From an uncultured Desulfospira sp. (GTDB taxonomy: Bacteria > Desulfobacterota > Desulfobacteria > Desulfobacterales > Desulfobacteraceae), in NCBI GenBank assembly GCA_963663165.1, contig OY760175.1, forward strand, positions 4,864,001 through 4,928,000: a stretch of DNA of 64,000 bases, in the 5' to 3' direction. The notes below the pieces were generated by a model. That model was not told the origin of the DNA. It saw only the letters and a program-made list of their open reading frames with translations, and made no database searches. Below are positions 9,329-53,920 of this stretch, piece after piece. Within the stretch, counting starts at the first letter, position 1. Every line of letters begins with the position of its first letter. A program made the position numbers and the translations under genes.

Positions 9329-9651
9329 TAGGTTACGGTTTCCGCGTATTCGACCCCATACCCATAAGGCCCGGGCGGTTGGGAAGTGCCCAGTTCATCG
9401 GACCATTTAACGTATCCGATATATTTGTCGTACTTTTCAAACCCGCCGTCGGAGGGGTCATAATTGCGGATTTTAATAAATAGCTCCTGGCCGATATCCA
9501 GTGCTTCTTCGGTTTTAAGGTACATGCCGCCGATGCTGTAATTCTGGAGTTCGGCCGCTGCCCCGCTGCTTAAGGTCTCGTTCCGGTACAATAACAAGGA
9601 CGCCTGATGATTGTACCGTTCATACCGGCGCTTTTCTATGCCGCTTGCCAT
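9325..9651 (-). CDS. PilZ domain protein (c-di-GMP receptor)
   Basis: RRYER (RxxxR) and NYSIGG (D/NxSxxG) motifs, YGVEY. Confidence 0.85.
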
Positions 9652-9815
9652 AACCGTCTCCTTTTAGAGGGTGTTTTGTTACATTATGTTTCGTTTAAAC
9701 CGGTTATATATTATCCTTGTTTGGAATTGGATTACAACCAAAATCCTGATATAGTGTCCTTTGCGTAAACTGTTTGAGAGTTTGACCAGGGACCTGTGTT
9801 GACTTTCAATAGGCG

Positions 9816-11090
9816 TTGCGGGCGGTTTGGGGTGGAATAAGCCAAAGCCGCCCGGGGCTGTTATTTGATCATGAGGATGAAACGTTGAATCCGGCAAAAA
9901 AATGTATTCTGCAGAAAGGCAAAGGCAGAACAAGAAAGCTTGCCAAGCTTGAATATTTATACGAAAAAGAGTCTTTGTATTTTGCACAGATATCTGAAAG
10001 CATTAAGGAACTGGCCCTAAACGAGCTCAAAGAACTGAATGCACAGGATCTCAAACCCGTATTCCGGGGCGTCTGGTTCAAGGCGTCAAAGCCCGATTTT
10101 TACCGGATTATATATTATTCCCGGTTGATATCCCGGGTCCTGGCCCCCCTGGCCCAGTTTGACTGCCTGGACAAGGATGAACTTTACCGGCAGGCCAAAA
10201 AAATCCACTGGGAAGAGTTTTTAACCCCGAGAAAGACCTTTGCCGTATCGGCCAATGTGTCCGAATCATCCATTACCCACTCCAATTTTGCAGGGCTGCG
10301 GGTCAAGGATGCCATTGCCGACTACTTCCGGGACAGGACCAACAAACGGCCGAATGTGGATGCCCAGAACCCTTATGTGCTGATCAACGTCCACATTCAT
10401 AAAGACAGGGCCACTTTGTCCGTTGATGCCTCAGGCGGGCCCCTGCACAAACGGGGCTACCGGGAGGAAACCGTGTCCGCCCCCATGCAGGAAACCGTTG
10501 CCGGGGCCATTGTCCGGCTTTCCGAGTGGGACGGCGCCATCCCCCTTTACGATCCCATGTGCGGGTCCGGAACCCTGCTTTGTGAGGCACTGATGCATGT
10601 CTGCGGGATTCCGGCCCAGGTCCTTCGCACGGACTTCGGGTTTGAGCGGCTTCCCGACTTTGACAAGGGGATGTGGGAACAGGTCAAAGCCCGGGCCCGA
10701 GACGATATAAAGGACCTTGTCCCGGGGCTGATTGCCGGCAGTGATATTTCCGAACATGCGGTCGAGGCGGCAAAGACCAATTTGATGGGGCTTCACCACG
10801 GGGGAAAAGTAAGTATTGAATTAAAAGATTTCCATGATATAAATAAACTTGAAGATGTTGTGATTATTACCAATCCACCCTATGGTATTCGGATGGGAAA
10901 AGATCAGAACATGAATGAATTTTATAAAGACCTGGGGCTGTTTTTGCGGGAAAAATGTTCTAAATGCCAGGCCTTTGTGTATTTTGGAGACCCCAAATAC
11001 ATTAAAAAGGTTCCCCTGTCACCCTCCTGGAAACGGCCTTTAAAAATCGGGGGCCTGGACGGAAAACTGGTTAAATATGAACTCTACTGA
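9816..11090 (+). CDS. THUMP-domain class I SAM-dependent RNA methyltransferase (RlmL N-terminal-like); start uncertain, possibly TTG 9885
   Basis: LHKRGYR, AP..ET.A, DPMCGSGT, GSDI, TNPPYG motifs. Confidence 0.9.
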   Translation: MRAVWGGISQSRPGLLFDHEDETLNPAKKCILQKGKGRTRKLAKLEYLYEKESLYFAQISESIKELALNELKELNAQDLKPVFRGVWFKASKPDFYRIIYYSRLISRVLAPLAQFDCLDKDELYRQAKKIHWEEFLTPRKTFAVSANVSESSITHSNFAGLRVKDAIADYFRDRTNKRPNVDAQNPYVLINVHIHKDRATLSVDASGGPLHKRGYREETVSAPMQETVAGAIVRLSEWDGAIPLYDPMCGSGTLLCEALMHVCGIPAQVLRTDFGFERLPDFDKGMWEQVKARARDDIKDLVPGLIAGSDISEHAVEAAKTNLMGLHHGGKVSIELKDFHDINKLEDVVIITNPPYGIRMGKDQNMNEFYKDLGLFLREKCSKCQAFVYFGDPKYIKKVPLSPSWKRPLKIGGLDGKLVKYELY

Positions 11091-11114
11091 AGACGGGTGT
11101 TAGAATAAACGACA

Positions 11115-11285
11115 ATGGAAAATCCTCAGACCGGCACCAGCACATACACATGCACTGATTACAGAGAAGAGATGGTCCTTTTAGGGCTTCAGCGAAGACT
11201 GACCCAAACGGACCTTTCCTTAGAAGAAAAACAAGAGATTTTAAAACAGATCACAGAGGTTGAGAAAAAAATGGGCATGGACTGA
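11115..11285 (+). CDS. Small hypothetical protein (56 aa), not in the ORF track
   Basis: MENPQTGTSTYTCTDYREEMVLLGLQRRLTQTDLSLEEKQEILKQITEVEKKMGMD*; fills the gap between two co-directional genes; coiled-coil pattern. Confidence 0.65.
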   Translation: MENPQTGTSTYTCTDYREEMVLLGLQRRLTQTDLSLEEKQEILKQITEVEKKMGMD

Positions 11286-11310
11286 TGCCAAAAACCTTAA
11301 AAGGTGTAAA

Positions 11311-14300
11311 ATGGCGCTTTCCCACAGTTACCCACAGGCACCGTCTACCAAAATTTACCATGAGCTCATGGGGTCAAAGGTGGCGGACATCCTTCTGGTT
11401 TCCTGCCCCTATGACGCCTTTATCATGGAAGAAGAGGGCCGGCTGTCCAACCGGATCATTCATGAGTACAAGGGCCTGAACCTGTCTAAGCCGCCCCGGC
11501 TGACCTGGGCCTCCTCGGCAAGTGAAGCCTTTGACCTGCTGGAGACCCAAAAATTTAATTTCATCATTGCCATGCCCAGCCTTGACGGCGTGAACGTGTA
11601 TACCTTTGCCCAGCAGGTGAAAGACCGGTATCCCAAGCTTCCCTTTTTCATGCTGCTTCACAATACCTGCGACATTGACCATTTTGTCTGCACAAGCCCC
11701 GGCACAGCTATTGCCCGGACCTATATCTGGGGCGGCAATGCCGATCTGCTGCTGGCCATTATCAAAAATTTTGAAGATGAAATGAATGTGGCCTTTGATA
11801 CCCGGAAGGCCAGGGTCAGGGTCATTATCATGGTGGAGGATTCCCCCCACCATTATTCTGCTTTGTTGCCGGTTCTGTACAAGCAGATTGTGCTTCAGAC
11901 CCAGTCCGTGATTGAAGAATCCATTAACGAAGAAGACCGGCTGCTCAAAATGAGGGGGCGGCCCAAAATTCTGGTGGCCCATGATTATGAGGGGGCCCTG
12001 GCCCTTTATACACGGTATCGTCCCTATGTGCTGTCTGTTTTTTCAGACATGCGGTATCCCCGCAAGGGAAAGGTGGACGAGTTTGCAGGGGTTAAGCTGC
12101 TCAAAAAGATCAAGGCGGATATCCCGGACCTGCCGGTTCTTCTGTTGAGTACCGAGGACCAGGCCAGGCAAAAGGCCTCAGAAATCCCCGCCGTCTTCAT
12201 CAACAAAAATGCCAGCGACCTCAACGACCGGATCAAGAGTTTTTTTGCCGGCAGCCTGGGGTTTGGGGCCTTTGTCTTCAAGACCCCCCAGGGACAGGAG
12301 ATTGCCCGGGCCAGTGATTTAAGGGCCATTGAAAAGCTGATCCCTGAAATCCCGGACGAGTCAGTTGCCCGGCATGCGAAAAACAATGACTTTTCACGCT
12401 GGCTCATGGCCCGCAGCGAAATTGACCTGGCCTTGAGTTTAAGGCCATATACCATTTACGATTTCCCTGATCCCGGCGCCTTAAAACGGTTTCTGGCCGA
12501 AAGTATCCGGGCCAGAAGAAAGGGAACCCGCCAGGGCCAGGTGATTGACTTTGATTCCGGAAAGTTTGATCCGGATACGGATTTTATGAAAATCGGGGCC
12601 GGTTCTCTAGGGGGAAAGGCCAGAGGTCTTGCCTTTATGGCCTCCCAGCTCAAACAGGACGATTCCTTGAGCCAAAAATTCCCGGATGTGGATATCAGTA
12701 TTCCCCAGACCTTTGTCATCTCAACAGACGGGTTTAAATCCTTTATTGAAAAGAACGACCTGGCCGGCCTGTTAAAATCAGAAAAACAGGCCCGGGATCA
12801 GGACATGATCCGCCGTTTTGTAAAGGCGGAGTTCCCCGAACGGCTCAGGCAGCAGCTCAGGGTTTACCTTGAAAACATCCATTACCCCATTGCGGTCCGG
12901 TCGTCTTCCTTATTTGAAGATGCCCATTACCAGCCCTTTGCCGGCCTTTACAAAACCTATATGCTGCCCAATTCTCATTCCGATCTTGAGGTCCGCCTGG
13001 ACCGGCTGATCATGGCCGTTAAAATGGTGTATGCCTCAACCTATCTGGCGGCCCCCCGGTCTTATGCGAAAAGCACCATGCACCGGACCGAAGACGAAGA
13101 AATGGCCGTGATCCTCCAGCAGATGACGGGCAAAGCGTACAAGAATTATTTTTATCCATCCATTTCCGGTGTGGCCCAGTCCTATAATTTTTATCCCATT
13201 GCCCACCTGAAAGCCGAAGGCGGCATCTCCCATATTGCCCTGGGGCTTGGGAAAATCGTAATGGAAGGCGGCCAGACCTTGCGGTTCTGCCCTGACTTTC
13301 CTACCTTTTTACCCCAGTTCTCCATGGTCAACGATATTCTGGAAAATTCCCAGAAATATTTTTATGCCTTGAGAACCGATAAGTTCCCTGGAAAAGATCA
13401 GCTGATTTCCGATTCTTCCGAGGATACGGCCCTGATCAAACTTGAGATCGACCAGGCCCGGGACCACCCGTCTGTTCAGGCCCTTTGCTCCACCTATTAC
13501 TCCCAGGACAACCGGATCAGGGACGGGTTTTCCAATAAAGGATTTCCTGTATTGACCTTTGCCGATATTCTCAAATATAATAGTTTTCCACTGGCCCGGA
13601 TTCTGTCCGAAGTCACCCGCATGGGACAAAAATGGATGGGGACCTCTGTGGAAGTTGAATTTGCCGTTAACCTTAACGGCCCGCCGGGCCGGGAAGACAG
13701 TGAGGGCAAACCGGAATTTTCCCTTCTCCAGATCAGGCCAATGGGCCGGTACCGGCAGAACCTTGGGGTAACCATTTCCCCCGAAGATATTAAAAGGGCT
13801 TTTTGCTATTCTACTTGTTCTCTTGGAAACGGGGAATACAAGGATATTTACGATATCGTCTATGTGGACCCGGACCGGTTTGATCCGGCCAAAACCATGG
13901 AGATCACCCGGGAGATCAACCAGATCAACGCCGGGTTCAGCCATGGGGGCGGCAAATACGTTCTGGTGGGGCCCGGCCGGTGGGGATCGTCTGACCGGTG
14001 GTTAGGGATTCCCGTGGTCTGGAACGATATCTCCAATGTCGGGGTAATGGTGGAAACCACCATTGAGAGTATTAAGGCTGATCCGTCCCAGGGATCACAT
14101 TTTTTCCAAAACATTACCTCTTTGGGGATTAGTTATGTTACTGTATTGGATAAGGGCGACGATTTTATCAACTATGATTTTTTTAAGCAACGGGAATGCC
14201 GGGCCAAGACCCGGTATTTAAGGCATATCCGGTTTGAGGACCCCATTCGGATACTAGTGGACGGCAAAACCTCAACATCCGTGATGATGCCCTGTGCCCC

Positions 14301-44459: not shown

Positions 44460-44813
44460 ATGCCCAGACCCAAGCGCCCCCGATGCATCGCATCCAGACC
44501 AGCGATTAAAGGGTTTAAGCCCAGGGGAGCCATAGAAACCGGAGAGGTTGTCCTCTCATTAGAAGAATTTGAAGCCCTCAGGCTCATTGATTATGAGGGG
44601 CTGGACCAGTCAGGGGCAGCCGAAGTGATGGATGTGTCCCGGCAGACCGTGGGCCGGATACTGAAAACCGCCCGCTTCAAAATTGCAGAGTCCCTGGTGA
44701 CGGCCAAACGGCTTACGGTCCAGGGCGGCTGTTATGAAATGCGGGGCCGGGGACGAGGCAGGGGCAGGGGCTGTCGGCATGGCCGGGGCAACGGCCATGA
44801 TCAGAACAGATGA
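44460..44813 (+). CDS. DUF134 family HTH protein
   Basis: MPRPKRPR, FKPRG, EEFEALRLIDYEGLDQ..AA..M.VSRQT. Confidence 0.9.
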   Translation: MPRPKRPRCIASRPAIKGFKPRGAIETGEVVLSLEEFEALRLIDYEGLDQSGAAEVMDVSRQTVGRILKTARFKIAESLVTAKRLTVQGGCYEMRGRGRGRGRGCRHGRGNGHDQNR

Positions 44814-44863
44814 GCTTATCCTTAAATTTATAAACCCAAAGGACGTTAAAGGAGGTGATAGCC

Positions 44864-45037
44864 ATGAGAAAAGGACAAGATAAGGCTGGCAGCCGGTTTA
44901 ACGGCCGGAACAGCAACTCAAACCAGGGCCAGGGCAGATGCCGGGGCGGCGGTCCCGGAAGATGCGGTGCCGGAACAGGCCAGGGCAAAGGCCGGTGCGG
45001 CAAGGGCCAGGGCCAGGGCCGCGGCCAAGGCAGATAA
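44864..45037 (+). CDS. Small Gly/Arg/Cys-rich protein
   Basis: AAGGAGGT RBS; GQGRCRGGGPGRCG repeats. Confidence 0.55.
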   Translation: MRKGQDKAGSRFNGRNSNSNQGQGRCRGGGPGRCGAGTGQGKGRCGKGQGQGRGQGR

Positions 45038-45137
45038 CCATAAAAACCAGAGGCTGAAGGCGCCTGGTTGAAAGATAATAAATATCGTTATTCCAGACAC
45101 CTTCAGCCAAGCATACATAATGCAAAGGAGAATTCAC

Positions 45138-45440
45138 ATGCCAGGATTAAACCAGAGAGGCCCGGAAAACATGGGGCCCATGACAGGAAGAAGAATGGGA
45201 AGATGCGTAACCGGTTCTCCCCAGGATCCGGCCGTTTATTCCGGCCAGGGATTTGGCTACGGACGGGGCCGGGGATGCGGCCGGGGATTCGGTCCCCGGG
45301 GCAGAGGGGCTGCCTTCTGGGGGGCGCCGGCAGGACCGGTAGCGCCGCAGACAAAAGAAGACCTGAATCTGAGGGCAAAGGCCCTGGAACAGGAACTTGA
45401 GGCCGTGAAAAACGAATTGAAAAATTTAAGTGGCGAATAA
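45138..45440 (+). CDS. DUF5320 family protein
   Basis: MPGLNQRGP...GPMTGRRMGRC, G/R-rich middle, coiled-coil tail. Confidence 0.85.
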   Translation: MPGLNQRGPENMGPMTGRRMGRCVTGSPQDPAVYSGQGFGYGRGRGCGRGFGPRGRGAAFWGAPAGPVAPQTKEDLNLRAKALEQELEAVKNELKNLSGE

Positions 45441-45615
45441 CGGTCCCGGACCGTCTTGGATTATCCAGCTAAGTCTCGGTCCACAATGAAAAATGAAAGT
45501 TTTTTCAGGTTGTTTGAGACTTTCATAAAACCGCCCCTTAAAGGGAAACGACCGGTCTTGCAGCACACAAGGCCGGCCGATTCCCTTTGCCGGGAAAAAT
45601 TACGGGAGATGAGAT

Positions 45616-48016: not shown

Positions 48017-49448
48017 CTGATTATATCGGATTTTGGGGAGGGCTTCGGTACCCACCCAAAGAAGCCGAAATGTAAAGGTTATGCAACCAGTTGTCGTGAT
48101 ATCTAAATTGATTCAGCCTTTCAGCTGGGCTTTTGAATCCGTTATGCCTTTTGACGGTTTCCGGGTTGTAAGGAGCAAAATTATGAATGAGTGTCCATCC
48201 TCGAATGCTCAGTTGCGCTGCATCCATTACTCCATGAAAATATTGAGTGCTGAACAGATGGCGATCCATTCTTTGCATCAATCTGTCAACCATGTTGCTC
48301 GTTCTGTGTGCCTTGGGATGATCATAGGCGTTTCTGTATGAAACAATATTTTTCCGTAATTTGTTTATGGGGTCTGATATAACATTCGGAGCATCTTGCT
48401 TTTTGCACCATTCGATCAACCTCCTGATTCGCTGTGAAAATGATATTTTGCTTTCAGCCCGATAACAATCCCATAGTTTTGATGCTGTTTCATCAAAAAT
48501 GTCTCTGTATTTCTTCTTTGCCCTATCACGAATTTTTATGAATACATGCAAAAAACAACAAACGATGGCTACCGATGGAAAAAGGCTTTTCCATGCCTGC
48601 CGGGTAGCTTTCCATCCGTCTATATTGACGGTCTCCGGAGAATATTCAGGCCGAAGGCATTGGGCTTCATCCCGGTAAAATTGATAAGCTCCAGTCAAGG
48701 CTTGTTTTCCAGCATTTTGAGCAACAGACGCTCCAAGAATGCAGCCATTTCCAACAGTTGTTGCCACATAAGTTTTTTCTCCCAGAATCCGGGTATGCTT
48801 CTCATCCGCCGCAAGATGTTGCGGGATGTCTTCCGGTTGTCGGATGGTTGTTCCAACGATACTATTGCGACCAAGTGACTGCTCAATCCGGTACCAATAC
48901 ATTGGATCCTTACCGAAAATGTGGCTCAGTGCCCAGAAGGGCACATTAAATTTTCGCATAAAAAGAGCTTTTTCAACCTCATCGACCAAGCCGGTGAGAT
49001 AGGGTGTCACAAAGGAAGGGCGGACTGTGTAAGCAATGCCGGACATCTCGATTCGCCGAATAGGGATCAACATTTTTTTTGAGTGATAGATATCTTTCAT
49101 TCGATATCCTTCTCTGGAAATTTCAGCTGGAAATAGTTCCGGGAAAAGCTCAATCCTTTCATTGAGACAGTTCCGAAATTTGTCAGGATTTTGAATGTTG
49201 TCATTATAATCATCTTGAGAAAAAGGCACACATATGGTTCTATGGTTTCGGATTGCGGATTCTGTATCTGTTTCCCACATATAGTTAGAGACCTCCTTGG
49301 CGGGTTTGGTCTCTAACTATATGAAATTATTGACAAAAAGTCTAGTCGGAATTCCCTTTGATTTCAATGGGTTACGAAAAAGTTTTTTACCCCCTTCCAA
49401 TGATTAGAGCGGTTTTGGCCTCTGTTCCCCTAAATCCGTTATAATCAG
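48017..49448 (-). mobile_element. 1432-bp IS with 23-bp TIRs and 8-bp TSD
   Basis: CTGATTATAwCGGATTTwGGGGA ends (21/23 match); GAATAATA at 48009-48016 and 49449-49456. Confidence 0.92.
48021..49280 (-). CDS. Transposase, IS256/Mutator-like RNase H fold, family uncertain
   Basis: AADEK, NIDGW, CFLH (CxxH), RTSNMVDR; fills the TIR-bounded element. Confidence 0.8.
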   Translation of the reverse strand: MWETDTESAIRNHRTICVPFSQDDYNDNIQNPDKFRNCLNERIELFPELFPAEISREGYRMKDIYHSKKMLIPIRRIEMSGIAYTVRPSFVTPYLTGLVDEVEKALFMRKFNVPFWALSHIFGKDPMYWYRIEQSLGRNSIVGTTIRQPEDIPQHLAADEKHTRILGEKTYVATTVGNGCILGASVAQNAGKQALTGAYQFYRDEAQCLRPEYSPETVNIDGWKATRQAWKSLFPSVAIVCCFLHVFIKIRDRAKKKYRDIFDETASKLWDCYRAESKISFSQRIRRLIEWCKKQDAPNVISDPINKLRKNIVSYRNAYDHPKAHRTSNMVDRLMQRMDRHLFSTQYFHGVMDAAQLSIRGWTLIHNFAPYNPETVKRHNGFKSPAERLNQFRYHDNWLHNLYISASLGGYRSPPQNPI

Positions 49449-49977
49449 GAATAATAAGATAGCCATTTCCGTCTCCATTGATCCTTGTGATACCCTCCTA
49501 TATGCATACAATTATTATTATGTCGATAAGGTCGAGGGCAAAGAAGTGTTACTTTATGAAAGCGCTATTGAATGCAAAGATCACGAATTGTCAATCAGCT
49601 TGCCCGAAAACTTTTTGCTGGGCAACCCTGTATACCTTAAGGTGGTTGTTCGGTCGGAATTTTCAGAGCTTGGCTCCGCGCAAATTGATCTCAGGGAGTG
49701 TGAACTTGCTGGTGAGTGGGTTAACGCCACGCTTTCCTATAACCCCCATGTCCTAGCGGACACAACGAAGCATGAAACACTTGCAAATTTTGAAAAAAGG
49801 TCATAGCCCGGATGGCCACCCAAAATCCCCCACTTATGGCCACCTCAAAATCCCCCACCTGAGCGTTTAAAAAATCAGGCGTAATCGCTGATAATCAGGA
49901 AATTCAGGAAAAACGGCGACAGAACGTTTAAATTCCCATGTATTACCCGATCAATCTAATCATGGGAGTTGGAAAGG

Positions 49978-52620
49978 ATGAACGTTTTGAAACCAGAAAA
50001 ACAGGCAGCAATCAGCACATTACTCAACAAGAATGTAAGCCAGCGAGAAATCAGCAGGAAAACTGGTATTGACCGGAAGACAGTACGCCGATACATACGT
50101 CAAAACGCTCCCGGATCAATCCAAATTCCCCCACCGGAGGCCACATCAAAATCCCCCACCCCGGCCACCGATCAGATTGGAAAGCCCCCACCCCGGCCAC
50201 CGGCTGATTCAGTGGATTCAGGCCCCATACCGTTTCACGCAAGATCCGCCTGTGAGCCTCACCGGAAATGGATTGAAGACCAGGTTCGACTGGGCAGAAA
50301 CGCCATGGCTATCTATCAGGATCTGGTGGAGCAGTTCAGTTTTGAACATAAGTACAACAGCGTTAAACGCTTTGTCCGCAAGTTAAAGCGCAAAGACCCC
50401 AAGCAGTTTGACCGACTGGAGTTTAGGCCTGGAGAAGAAGCCCAGGTGGATTATGGCCAAGGCGCCTTAACCAAGGGGCCGAATGGCAAATACAAACGTC
50501 CCCGGTTATTTGTGATGACCCTGAAATATTCCGGGCGCTCCTTTCGCAAGGTGGTCTGGAAATCCAGTCAAGAAACCTGGGCCAGGCTCCATGAAGAGGC
50601 GTTCCGGTATTTCGGTGGTTGCCCTGAATACGTGGTCTTAGACAATTTAAAAGAGGGTGTTATCAAGCCGGATATCTATGAGCCTGAGTTGAACCCGGTT
50701 TATGCAGCTGTACTGGCTCACTACGGTGTAGTAGCAGACCCGGCCAGGGTACGAGATCCCGACCGCAAGGGCACGGTGGAGAATGCCGTTCAGCATACCC
50801 AGAATACAGCCCTGAAAGGAAAGCAGTTCGACACCATTGAAGCCCAGAATGAATGGCTGATGCACTGGGAAGAAAGATGGGCATCAACCCGGATACACGG
50901 CCGGAAGAAACGGCAGGTGGAGGAGATGTTCCAGGAGGAAAAGCCCCATTTGTCCCTCCTGCCGTTGAAAGGGTTTGAATATTTTCGCCAGGAGACCCGC
51001 ACAGTGTATGATGACGGAACTATCCAGGTAGACTCATGCTATTATTCCGCCTTGCCGGCGCCGTTGCACCAGGAAATCATTGTCCGGATTTATGAAACAC
51101 AGATTGACATCATCAATCCCCGGACCATGGAAAAAATCCGCACCCATATCAAAGGCGACCGGCCCGGAGCGGTTAAGATGGAGGAGGAAGACCGGATCTT
51201 CAATCCATCCCGGCAAACAACCAGCCTTTTGAATAAAGCCGAAAGTATCGGTCCTGCGACGAGACAGCTATGCGAACTGATTTTCAAGGAAAAGGGACGC
51301 CCCGGACAGCGCCGGATGCAGGGCATTGTCAATCTTGCCCGGAAACATGAGGCCGGCAGTATTGAGGCGGCGGCCCAAACAGCCATAGAGAAGGGATTGC
51401 GCAGTTACAAATCCTTTTGCCGGCTGGTTGAACACCAGAAATCATTTACAGATACCAGACCACAAGAGGGTATCAGCCAGGAGCATGAACTGATCCGGCC
51501 GTCAAATGATTACGGTCAGTTTTTCGACACGTATGCTGCAGGTAATCAACCCGTTATCTCAAAACAGGACCTGCCAAAGGTATGGCAAAGTGCCGACTGG
51601 TTGAAGGTGATGGCCGTTTTCGGCCTTGAGCCCCAAAAGAACAAAAAAGACGAAATCTGGATTCAATCCCCTTTTACCGGAGAACAGAACGCCTCTTTGC
51701 ATGTGCATCTGGGGCAGAATGTCTACAAGGACTTCAGCAGCGGCAAAGGCGGTGGAATCCTCAATTTCTGCCAGGATCTGCTCGCCCGCAAAGGGCGGGT
51801 GATGAACTGCTACCAAGTGGCGGAATGGATGATCAGCGAAGGCATTTCAAGCCTGAACAAACCCGTGGCCGTTGAGCCCAAACCAACTCCAGAAAAGAAT
51901 CAGGCCAACCCGCCGGTGAGTATTGATCTGCAACCGTTTCTGGAAATCGTTCATCCGGAACTTGAAAACCGGGGGATTTCCAATAAGGCCTGCAGATACC
52001 TGGGATGCGGATATCTGCCCAAGAGAGCCACAGGCAAAAGTTCTCCATTAAACGGAAGAGTGGTCTTTCAGGTGCGAGGGATCAGTCCGGAACTAACCCC
52101 TGTCATTCTAAGCCATGTCGGCCGTGCATTGACAGACCATCAGGCTGACCTGGATGGCAGATACTGGGGCTTTCCTTTCTCCAAAAAGCTGGAAATCTAC
52201 AACCAGGACAAACTGCTGCTGGACCCAAACGCCAGGGATCAGGTGGAACGATATGGCTTGACCCTTGTGGAGGGCTTTTTTGATGTGGCAGCCCTGGTGT
52301 CCGCTGACTGTTTGAATGCAGGCGCTCTCATGGGAGCACATCTGGCAGTGGAACAGGTTCTCCAACTCAGGTTTCTGGCATCACATATGGATATAAACAA
52401 GGTCAACCTTTTCCTGGACCGGGATGAGGCTGGAAGTAAAGGGACCCGGGCTGCGGCATCACTACTTACGCACCATGGGTTTACTGTAAATGTGTTTGAC
52501 TGGAACCACCGGTTCAGCCGGCCTGGATGTCCACCTGCAGGGATCAAGTCCGATATAAAAGATCCGGCGGACATGTCTGAAACCCAGCTCAAATACTTAA
52601 GAAAACAAGGGATGATTTAA
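49978..52620 (+). CDS. istA: IS21 transposase IstA fused to a C-terminal DnaG-like (ZBD-like plus TOPRIM) module
   Basis: HTH ISRKTGIDRKTVRRY; DDE AQVDYG / VLDNLK / KGTVE; then SPFTGEQNASL..YKDFSSGKGG, LVEGFFD, FLDRDEAG, KDPAD. Confidence 0.88.
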   Translation: MNVLKPEKQAAISTLLNKNVSQREISRKTGIDRKTVRRYIRQNAPGSIQIPPPEATSKSPTPATDQIGKPPPRPPADSVDSGPIPFHARSACEPHRKWIEDQVRLGRNAMAIYQDLVEQFSFEHKYNSVKRFVRKLKRKDPKQFDRLEFRPGEEAQVDYGQGALTKGPNGKYKRPRLFVMTLKYSGRSFRKVVWKSSQETWARLHEEAFRYFGGCPEYVVLDNLKEGVIKPDIYEPELNPVYAAVLAHYGVVADPARVRDPDRKGTVENAVQHTQNTALKGKQFDTIEAQNEWLMHWEERWASTRIHGRKKRQVEEMFQEEKPHLSLLPLKGFEYFRQETRTVYDDGTIQVDSCYYSALPAPLHQEIIVRIYETQIDIINPRTMEKIRTHIKGDRPGAVKMEEEDRIFNPSRQTTSLLNKAESIGPATRQLCELIFKEKGRPGQRRMQGIVNLARKHEAGSIEAAAQTAIEKGLRSYKSFCRLVEHQKSFTDTRPQEGISQEHELIRPSNDYGQFFDTYAAGNQPVISKQDLPKVWQSADWLKVMAVFGLEPQKNKKDEIWIQSPFTGEQNASLHVHLGQNVYKDFSSGKGGGILNFCQDLLARKGRVMNCYQVAEWMISEGISSLNKPVAVEPKPTPEKNQANPPVSIDLQPFLEIVHPELENRGISNKACRYLGCGYLPKRATGKSSPLNGRVVFQVRGISPELTPVILSHVGRALTDHQADLDGRYWGFPFSKKLEIYNQDKLLLDPNARDQVERYGLTLVEGFFDVAALVSADCLNAGALMGAHLAVEQVLQLRFLASHMDINKVNLFLDRDEAGSKGTRAAASLLTHHGFTVNVFDWNHRFSRPGCPPAGIKSDIKDPADMSETQLKYLRKQGMI

Positions 52621-52649
52621 GGGATGAAAAAAGAAAAAAAGGAGGTATC

Positions 52650-53429
52650 ATGAGTATGACGACCACGGAACTTGAAAAACACTTAAAAGAACTCAGGCTG
52701 AGCGGTATGCAGGCTACCCTGGAAAGCCGGGCATTACAGGCCAATCAGTCCAATGCAAGCCTTGTCGAAGGGCTGTCATGGCTGGTTCAGGATGAACTGG
52801 ATCATCGTTCTTCAAATCTTAAACAACGCAGATTCAAGGCATCCGGCCTGGATGAACTCCAGACGCTGACGGATTTTGACTGGGGGTTCAATCCAAAACT
52901 TCCTAAAAAGGAAATTTATGAACTGGTGACCGCCAAGTTCATAAAAAATGGAGAGCATGCCCTTTTAATCGGTGCGCCGGGTACTGGAAAGAGCCGGATT
53001 GCCAAAACCATTGCCCACGCATCTGTTCAATTGTTCCAGAAAACCTTGTACCGGGAGGCCCATGTGTTTTTTGAAGACATGTTCGAAGCCGAACAAACCC
53101 ATAATCAGAAAAAGATCTTCAAACTGTTTACACAGGCGGATCTTTTGGTTATTGATGATTTGTTCCTTCGTAAAAGAATGCCCAACGATGCGGCCGATTA
53201 CCTGCTGGATATCATCATCAACCGATATTCAAAAAGGAAGAGTACGGTAATAACGTCAAACAGACCCCTTGAAGACTGGGGCTTGCTGCTCAAAGACAAT
53301 GCCGCATCATCGGCCATACTGGATCGGCTGCTCCACCATGGTCACCTGCTGAAGTTCGAAGGGAAAAGCTACCGTCTCAAGGAAGCCGCTAAACGGCTCT
53401 CTGCGCCACAAAATAAGAACGAGGGATGA
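52650..53429 (+). CDS. istB: IS21 helper AAA+ ATPase IstB
   Basis: LKELRLSGM, DFDWGFN, GAPGTGKS, LLVIDD, ITSNRP..DW, AILDRLLHH, GKSYR. Confidence 0.95.
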   Translation: MSMTTTELEKHLKELRLSGMQATLESRALQANQSNASLVEGLSWLVQDELDHRSSNLKQRRFKASGLDELQTLTDFDWGFNPKLPKKEIYELVTAKFIKNGEHALLIGAPGTGKSRIAKTIAHASVQLFQKTLYREAHVFFEDMFEAEQTHNQKKIFKLFTQADLLVIDDLFLRKRMPNDAADYLLDIIINRYSKRKSTVITSNRPLEDWGLLLKDNAASSAILDRLLHHGHLLKFEGKSYRLKEAAKRLSAPQNKNEG

Positions 53430-53538
53430 AAAAAGGAAAAAATCGCAGATTTTAAGAGCATAACTTAGATCTCAATATTCTGTCGCTGGGGGATTTTGAC
53501 CCGGCCACAGGTGGGGGATTTTAAAGTGGCCATCCGGG

Positions 53539-53920
53539 ATAGCTATCAATTTTTTTTCGACCAAGAAAAATATATGGAGTGCGACAGGTTTTTAAAACGT
53601 GATAAGCTGTCTGCAGAACCTCGGGGATACGGGGCCTTTTCGGCAGGGTATGAATATCCAGATATTTATCCAGAGTCTGGGTCCGCCGCCATCCATTTTG
53701 GTCTGGATAGACCCGCCATAATTGAGAATCCTCTGCCAGGGCTGCCTTTGTACGGCCGGTGGACTCCACCCAGTAATGAATGGCCCGGTTCATCAGATCA
53801 ACAATAAGTTCAGGCAGCGATGCAGAATCTCTTTTTTGAACAACCTGATTCCAGGCAGGGTCTGATTCAAAACAGGTGTCTTTGATTAAAGCTGTGGCAT
53901 CGTTGATATCCGCAGCTTTG
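53539..53920 (-). pseudogene. Orphan C-terminal fragment of a larger, probably signalling, protein
   Basis: ELIVDLMNRAIHYWVESTGRTKAALAEDSQLWRVY....WRRTQTLDKYL...LPKRPR reads as a genuine domain; in-frame stop upstream, no RBS. Confidence 0.45.

Follow-up and report, generated by a model that had tools for sequence, protein, structure and literature searches.

The window analyzed here, a 64-kb stretch of the Desulfospira sp. contig OY760175.1 (positions 4,864,001 to 4,928,000, forward strand; coordinates given below count within the window), comes from a genome that is a single 6.74-Mb contig and contains, at 49807-53538, a whole IS21-family insertion sequence (IS) of 3,732 bp whose transposase gene, istA, continues in frame into a region predicted to be a DnaG-type primase. 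The original prediction, made from the letters alone, described a complete IS21 element with matched ends, an ATAG duplication and an intact istB, and each of these features is borne out. The left end begins with CCCGGATGGCCAC... at 49807 and the right end closes with ...GTGGCCATCCGGG at 53538, and a copy of ATAG lies beside each, at 49803-49806 and 53539-53542. The left terminal inverted repeat (49807-49861, forward strand) holds two L1/L2-like subterminal units with AAAATCCCCCA cores at 49822 and 49847, 25 bp apart, and the right terminal inverted repeat (53484-53538, reverse strand) holds two R1/R2-like units (cores at 53487 and 53512). Within the coding region (50121-50160, forward strand) lies a third pair of units resembling those of the ends, with cores at 50123 and 50148, again 25 bp apart. 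The exact word AAAATCCCCCA occurs five times across the window and all five occurrences are within the element, a clustering that exceeds chance.

The open frame of the fusion extends from 49969 to 52620 on the forward strand and encodes 883 residues when counted from a TTG codon, but the start codon is likely to be the ATG at 49978, since most aligned homologues and the 880-residue cluster P0001 begin alike; the istA-primase gene is accordingly given as 49978-52620, with its stop codon at 52618-52620, and its 880-residue product begins MNVLKP. The transposase part has an N-terminal helix-turn-helix (HTH) domain (49999-50103; residues 11-45 counted from the TTG), matched by Pfam HTH_28 and related families, a DDE (rve) catalytic core (50470-50760, residues 168-264), a β-barrel domain (50959-51117, residues 331-383; Mu-transpos_C_2 at 26.2 bits, just below the cutoff of 27), and a helical C-terminal region (51118-51525) that ends at a conserved LIRP..DYG.FF motif. 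Among 25 aligned full-length family members (61-87% identity), the DDE residues Asp161, Asp225 and Glu271 and the LIRP..DY motif at 508-515 are invariant. The NCBIfam model transpos_IS21 scores 270 bits on the fused protein (cutoff 160; E 2.5e-80), and the family profile matches the IS5376 IstA structures 8q4d and 8b4h with an E value of 1.6e-24; in IS5376 IstA, the β-barrel domain contacts IstB (PMC11208146). The istB gene, encoding a 259-residue AAA+ helper ATPase, lies immediately downstream (52650-53429, forward strand) and is identified by Pfam IstB_IS21 (E 1.2e-48) and NCBIfam IS21_help_AAA (201 bits, cutoff 200).

The closest unfused relative indicates where the transposase ends. In a BLASTP alignment with the annotated IstA of IS1631 (585 residues), 305 of 524 positions (58%) are identical over query residues 1-516, and the alignment stops at a shared LIR(P/T)..(D/E)YG..F motif, beyond which IS1631 continues with about 50 unrelated residues. 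By sequence comparison, the N-terminal 516-520 residues of the fused protein are therefore a complete IstA, and the earlier description of the first ~520 residues as a normal IstA, with HTH, DDE and LIRP..Y tail, stands; the accompanying statement that IstA is about 500 residues or shorter does not, because the IS1631 protein is annotated at 585. The element is nevertheless oversized for its family, at 3,732 bp and 880 residues as compared with about 2-2.7 kb and about 400-585 residues. When 72,556 plasmid records were searched by tblastn, 1,317 had a match, the best being IS1631-family istA genes with about 58% identity over residues 1-516, and none of these 1,317 reached at least 80% query coverage or carries the fusion. 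Of 401 genomes sampled from the phylum, 66 have an IstA-like match, an intact fused gene is present only in G000 and G223, fragments at 56-67% identity occur in three more, and other unfused IstAs are no more than 38% identical. The IS1631 family is thus, on sequence, the nearest unfused relative found.

The C-terminal 360 residues are, by profile and predicted fold, a DnaG-type primase module. It consists of a domain like the DnaG zinc-binding domain (ZBD; 51562-51858, residues 532-630), with the zinc-ribbon fold, the N-terminal subdomain of the primase RNA-polymerase domain (RPD; 51910-52224, residues 648-752), containing GRVVFQVRG, HVGRA and GRYWGFPF, and a TOPRIM domain with a short C-terminal helix (52225-52617, residues 753-883), containing Glu768, Asp772, Asp817, Asp819 and Asp865; all are on the forward strand. 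Pfam matches are a weak Zn_ribbon_DnaG (562-604, E 1e-3) and Toprim_2/Toprim_4 (766-845, E 2e-8), and NCBIfam dnaG (TIGR01391) gives an E value of 2e-18, which is below the family cutoff. Searched as a single sequence against the Protein Data Bank, the module retrieved DnaG structures only (E 2.6e-4 to 1e-3), and in PHROGs it matched the DNA primase family phrog_47 (E 4.8e-26) over residues 22-355 of 363. A profile built from 58 module sequences matched Aquifex DnaG with an E value of 1.1e-41, spanning the ZBD and RPD, and also matched DnaG from Staphylococcus aureus (4.9e-29) and Escherichia coli (4.6e-20), an isolated ZBD (1.2e-16), and T7 gp4 (2e-7). PADLOC matches to the DRT-associated RT_UG29 and RTasDnaG-like entries cover their primase portions only and are interpreted as a shared domain as opposed to a defence system.

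The fold assignment was examined with an AlphaFold (AF2) model of the module built from 58 diverse sequences, which has a predicted local distance difference test score (pLDDT) of 93.5; the corresponding model of the full-length protein, from 25 close homologues, reached a pLDDT of only 57.5 and was set aside. In Foldseek searches, DnaG ranked first (2au3, E 9.7e-15), followed by T4 gp61, T7 gp4, and Twinkle, and an aligner independent of Foldseek gave Z scores of 19.4 for 2au3, 19.0 for 5guj (2.6 Å over 203 residues), 17.6 for the T7 primase, 16.5 for E. coli DnaG, and 11.1 for the ZBD (1d0q, over 95 residues), whereas non-primase TOPRIM proteins scored 9.2 or less. The TOPRIM/DnaG fold, whose absence would have been fatal to the primase assignment, is thus present in the model. 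Invariant in the 25 full-length members are Arg697, Phe700, Gln701, Arg703, Gly704, Gly718, Arg719 and Tyr732 of the N-terminal subdomain and Glu768 (LVEGFFD), Asp772, Asp817 and Asp819 (DRD) and Asp865 (KDPxD) of the TOPRIM domain, so that the RPD has the N-subdomain motifs (basic, on the NTP and template side) and the TOPRIM Glu, DxD and Asp expected of DnaG. Every DnaG motif quoted in the original prediction, in DnaG order, is therefore present and invariant, and the retention that it noted of the TOPRIM acidic residues extends to Glu768, Asp817, Asp819 and Asp865 across the family. Its proposal that the Cys/His ligands of the ZBD-like segment had been replaced is confirmed by the alignment with Aquifex DnaG, which places Ser567, Thr570, Asp588 and Ser591 at the four CHC2 ligand positions; the full ligand set is found in none of the 25 members, one of which has a single Cys. 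The protein stops 13 residues past the last TOPRIM element and, because the model ends there, it has neither the helical subdomain of the RPD nor a DnaB-binding domain; no DnaB_bind match was found in the module, unlike the bona fide DnaG P0269.

The fusion is, from sequence comparisons, a conserved family and not an artefact. The best 120 homologues align over 75-100% of the query at 57-99% identity, and Toprim_2 is in the precomputed Pfam list of 119 of them, but their NCBI labels read 'IS21 family transposase' only; the architecture is visible in public annotations yet unremarked. A search restricted to the module (E ≤ 1e-20) yielded 550 protein clusters of 485-1546 residues. Among 80 loci in reference genomes, IstA and primase are in one open frame in 47, in nine istB is directly downstream and the gene is either ended by the contig edge (seven) or split by a stop or frameshift (two), and the remainder are six tiny contigs and 18 standalone or other genes. 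The fusion occurs on long contigs from Desulfobacterota and Acidobacteriota and is thus present in at least two phyla; its assignments to Omnitrophota, Treponemataceae, and 'Pseudomonadota' come from short contigs of metagenome-assembled genomes (MAGs) and are less safe. The pairwise ratio of nonsynonymous to synonymous substitution rates (dN/dS), from 22 fused genes and 229 pairs, is 0.12 for the IstA part and 0.17 for the primase part, values that are approximate because dS is saturated near 1.1-1.3; within the primase part it is 0.12 for the ZBD-like domain, 0.13 for the N-subdomain, 0.20 for TOPRIM, and 0.49 for the linker between the ZBD and RPD, which argues that the module is under purifying selection. 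Two outcomes that the original prediction named as refuting, a chimera unique to this assembly and neutral decay of the primase part, are contradicted by the 550 clusters with 47 fused reference loci and by the dN/dS, respectively. It may be added that IstA and primase are separated by an in-frame stop, exactly at their junction, in one locus (L060), with three sibling copies in the same MAG fused, that another (L078) is split by a frameshift, that a third (L087) is degraded, and that a solo protein of 383 residues (P0121) branches inside the fused clade; L060, L078, and P0121 could be pseudogenes or two-protein variants.

The element is real and has recently transposed. A second, 99% identical copy in the same genome shares the termini but is flanked by a duplication of CTCA, and in public contigs the site is found unoccupied, with a single ATAG (runs X1, X2, and X7), and the element ends are found joined to different flanks (runs X2, X5, and X7). 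Both genomic copies are chromosomal and retain an intact fused frame; of the 31 nucleotide differences between the two fused genes, 23 are synonymous and 8 nonsynonymous. The termini are conserved as CCCTGA(T/G)GGCCAC.../...GTGGCCATCCAGG in six NaphS2 copies and four copies in a Desulfatiglandales MAG, and a 4-8 bp duplication flanks all 12 copies in which both ends were delimited (two in the window genome, six in NaphS2, and four in the Desulfatiglandales MAG), a count that omits Terriglobia copies, with the right end undelimited, and MFD02979 copies, with the left end undelimited. The search for further copies with differing duplications, suggested at the outset, thus succeeded both within the genome and in 10 reference copies. 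Copy 2 has since received two insertions of its own: the left-end region holds one of 1,380 bp (L004 1626-3005) with a 3-bp TAA overlap, and another of about 13 kb (G000:C1:5551904-5564964), with an 8-bp AAGGGATG overlap, separates the stop codon of istA-primase from the start of istB.

As in other IS21-family elements, each end is made of two direct repeat units and the target duplication is short, 4 bp here and 4-8 bp in the 10 related copies; the family range is 4-8 bp, with 5 bp in IS5376. The element does not have terminal TG...CA, however, and ends CCCGG.../...CCGGG. These CC...GG termini are fixed by the two duplications, the empty site, and the 10 further copies, and the left terminus is identical in copy 2 and found also in the NaphS2 and Desulfatiglandales copies. 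They are a subgroup trait, because IS1631, a curated member of the IS21 family, ends CCCC.../...GGGG. The canonical IS21 reactive end is 3'-CA, and ends of paired repeats have been described for IS5376 (PMC10122671). With respect to the internal pair of repeat units, it overlaps a Pro-rich low-complexity stretch (50069-50202, residues 51-88 of the fused protein), which also contains a 22-nucleotide direct repeat at 50149-50170 and 50181-50202. For the codons of residues 51-88, dS is unusually low family-wide (0.38) and dN/dS is 0.94, a combination that hints that the DNA itself, not the protein, is constrained, and 50069-50202 may be an internal transposase-binding site. In a contig from run X1 (depth 5.7), 32 bp between the direct repeats are missing (50152-50185), which would put istA out of frame at around codon 62.

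The origin of the module is indicated by its relatives outside transposases. An exhaustive search with the module returned 842 representatives with an E value of 1e-3 or lower, of which 72 had 1e-30 or lower. Many are standalone proteins of 350-400 residues that cover the full module span at 30-41% identity, have Zn_ribbon_DnaG and Toprim (Toprim_2/Toprim_4) without a DnaB_bind domain, and share the C-terminal tail of the module. The CHC2 set is incomplete in these proteins also, and the loss of the zinc ligands therefore predates the fusion. Of 17 standalone loci plus one ambiguous, 12 standalone loci were examined, and a MobA/VirD2 relaxase was found within about 4 kb at eight, with MobC/NikA and a coupling protein at one more; integrases, Rep3, ParA, and TraV are also located near standalone primases, and no transfer genes were found at three loci in a Desulfarculus MAG. 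A relaxase or type IV secretion system (T4SS) context thus characterizes nine of the 12 standalone loci but not the fused gene, whose element holds just istA-primase and istB. In a quick maximum likelihood tree (IQ-TREE, with Shimodaira-Hasegawa-like approximate likelihood ratio test (SH-aLRT) support), 22 fused modules and P0121 form one clade (SH-aLRT 100), which is sister to two standalone proteins (SH-aLRT 98) and nested inside the standalone group. These relationships fit a single capture, whole, of an already zinc-less primase, and a conjugative or mobilisable element is the suggested source because the nearest relatives are zinc-less standalone primases beside relaxase or coupling-protein genes. 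According to Iyer et al. (PMC5512222), domains of the Toprim_2/3/4 type are active DnaG-like primases with which conjugative elements prime the single-stranded DNA (ssDNA) that is transferred.

Some standalone loci merit separate mention. The three in the Desulfarculus MAG (L019, L022, and L025) are copies of a primase-like gene with a common HTH_3 neighbor upstream, and L019 and L022 also have upstream open reading frames (ORFs) of about 316 and 930 residues without a Pfam match; no relaxase was found around the primase-like genes at these three loci, which may represent a different repeated mobile element that uses the same primase clade. At L009, a Gabija-like pair (9468-12135; AAA_15 with an OLD-like TOPRIM protein, then a UvrD-like helicase) adjoins the module of relaxase, coupling-protein, and primase genes and is followed by a DNA methylase.

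In summary, the element belongs to the IS21 family, resembles IS1631, and has a complete IstA joined in frame, via a flexible linker, to an entire zinc-less DnaG-like primase. The most likely role of the module, to which a probability of about one-half is assigned, would be to prime DNA synthesis on replicative transposition intermediates. In such a mechanism, the module would be an active, helicase-independent primase held at the synapsed ends by its attachment to the transposase tetramer and, because of that attachment, could lay an RNA primer on ssDNA exposed in the intermediate, which might be either the displaced or uncopied strand of the proposed IS21 copy-out step or a strand-transfer product at its fork. 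The second strand would then be finished by a host DNA polymerase without waiting for restart by host PriA/DnaB/DnaG, and IstB, bound to target DNA, would go on activating IstA as it is known to do.

Several observations weigh against a priming role. The CHC2 zinc ligands are gone even though the ZBD fold is kept, and in DnaG and T7 gp4 the zinc-binding domain is needed for de novo priming. The module also has no helicase-binding domain through which it would be brought to a template. Ordinary IS21 and IS1631 elements transpose without a primase of their own, and the module must therefore be dispensable for the basic chemistry of the family. No right-to-left inverted repeat (IRR-IRL) circle or tandem junction was found among the joints in public contigs, which drop rare forms and so do not speak against its existence, and the copy-out/paste-in replicative route for IS21 is described only as 'proposed' (PMC11208146), its replicative nature being unsettled.

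In the strongest alternative, the module is catalytically or structurally active but does not make primers for transposition. It might bind ssDNA or forks and thereby target or regulate the reaction, or it might be a TOPRIM nuclease whose cleavage of the non-transferred strand alters the pathway. A zinc-less ZBD suggests changed template handling, TOPRIM domains also function as nucleases (OLD and RNase M5 are examples), the fold matches include gyrase, RecR, Topo VI, and RNase M5 itself (Z 8.4-9.2), and the extreme C terminus of IstA is described as having an undefined role in PMC11208146. Such a role is nevertheless rather unlikely, since what is conserved is not TOPRIM alone but the entire DnaG RPD, including GR..FQ.RG, GR, and G(K/R)YW.FPF, the primase fold matches (Z 16.5-19.4) are far above those of other TOPRIM proteins, and the nearest relatives are located where primases are expected. 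It is less probable still that the module has kept an ancestral task in conjugation, priming the complementary strand of an IS that enters a cell on transferred ssDNA and so allowing early expression and transposition. The relaxase or coupling-protein genes at nine of 12 standalone loci and the priming of transferred ssDNA by conjugative Toprim primases (PMC5512222) would accommodate this, but no fusion is present in any of the 1,317 plasmid records with a match, both copies in the window genome are chromosomal, the element has no relaxase or T4SS gene, and the protein would have to pre-exist the double-stranded DNA or be transferred, to neither of which anything points. Finally, it is very improbable that the module has no function, whether as a passenger that evolves neutrally, a chimera of the assembly or the product of a decaying read-through. 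The few broken copies (the stop in L060, the frameshift in L078, and the degraded L087) are set against the 550 clusters, the occurrence of the fusion on long contigs in many genomes of at least two phyla, the single clade in the tree, a dN/dS of 0.17 with invariant catalytic residues, and the intact frames of both genomic copies.

Priming on transposition intermediates is accordingly the preferred reading, and a stronger form of it can be proposed tentatively, although it is doubtful as it stands: that this is a DDE transposon with its own primase, in which second-strand priming within the transpososome frees the IS1631-like lineage from PriA/DnaG restart by the host, and in which the module may act beside IstB, a DnaC paralogue, as a minimal transposon-encoded priming machine. 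If correct, the fusion would be natural evidence for a replicative, primer-requiring intermediate in IS21-family transposition. The element bears on the recruitment of DNA synthesis to intermediates of replicative transposition in systems other than phage Mu, and the retention of the primase under purifying selection across hundreds of lineages is an evolutionary pointer that priming can limit IS21 transposition. As a system it is compact and testable: a single protein, with obvious active-site mutations to make and IS1631 as a sister element that naturally has no primase. The relationships described here also document a flow of domains from conjugative elements to an insertion sequence and define a clade of zinc-less DnaG-like primases.

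With regard to the surroundings of the element, an ORF of 419 residues about 0.5 kb upstream (48021-49280, reverse strand) has a weak similarity to Mutator/MULE transposases (E 1e-3, below cutoff) and is probably another transposase-like gene. The segment from 44500 to 45500 has a GC content of 0.55-0.58 as compared with a background of about 0.40, with a strong positive AT skew, and no Rfam families were found between 43000 and 56000.

The literature searched, which did not extend to ISfinder and TnCentral, contains no description of an IstA-primase fusion, in agreement with the original prediction; 'primase' and 'Toprim' do not occur in the available parts of PMC10122671 and PMC11208146, nor 'transposase' in that of PMC5512222. 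The closest of the known systems is IS1631, an IS21-family element of Bradyrhizobium, which shares with the window element a 58% identical IstA, an istB directly downstream, termini that begin CCC.../...GGG, and subterminal repeats of the AAAATCCCCC type; the copy examined has 2,712 bp, ends CCCC.../...GGGG, and is flanked by a 5-bp duplication, TCGAG. The two differ in that the IS1631 IstA has an unrelated tail of about 50 residues where the window element has a linker and the 360-residue primase module. IS21 and IS5376 (8b4h and 8q4d) likewise have an IstA with HTH, DDE core, and β-barrel, an AAA+ IstB, and paired L1/L2 and R1/R2 repeats, but the IstA of IS5376 (chains of 373 and 406 residues) has no primase, its reactive end is 3'-CA as opposed to GG, and its repeats are spaced by 23 bp as opposed to 25 bp.

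The module itself resembles DnaG (Aquifex 2au3, E. coli 1dd9, and S. aureus 4e2k) in having the ZBD fold, the RPD N-subdomain, and TOPRIM in order and in keeping the acidic metal-site residues and the GR and (K/R)Y motifs, but differs in that the zinc ligands are replaced, both the helical C-subdomain of the RPD and the DnaB-binding domain are missing, and the whole is fused to a transposase. Its closest relatives, standalone genes for proteins of 350-400 residues near relaxase, MobC, and coupling-protein genes, link it with the Toprim primases of conjugative elements; Toprim_2 and Toprim_4 are assigned by Iyer et al. to mobile-element primases, of which TraC1 of RP4 and SogL of R64 are examples (PMC5512222). 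The fused form is outside a T4SS context, unlike those primases. The primase fragment of T7 gp4 (1nui) is similarly a minimal combination of ZBD and RPD without the helical subdomain, but its ZBD binds zinc and it is fused to a helicase, whereas the module is fused to a transposase. We know of no other DDE transposase that is fused to a DnaG-type primase. Conceptually, the element can be compared with casposons, Polintons, and phage Mu as mobile elements whose movement requires DNA synthesis. Of these, casposons and Polintons bring a polymerase of their own, a protein-primed PolB, and Mu recruits the host restart primosome via PriA.

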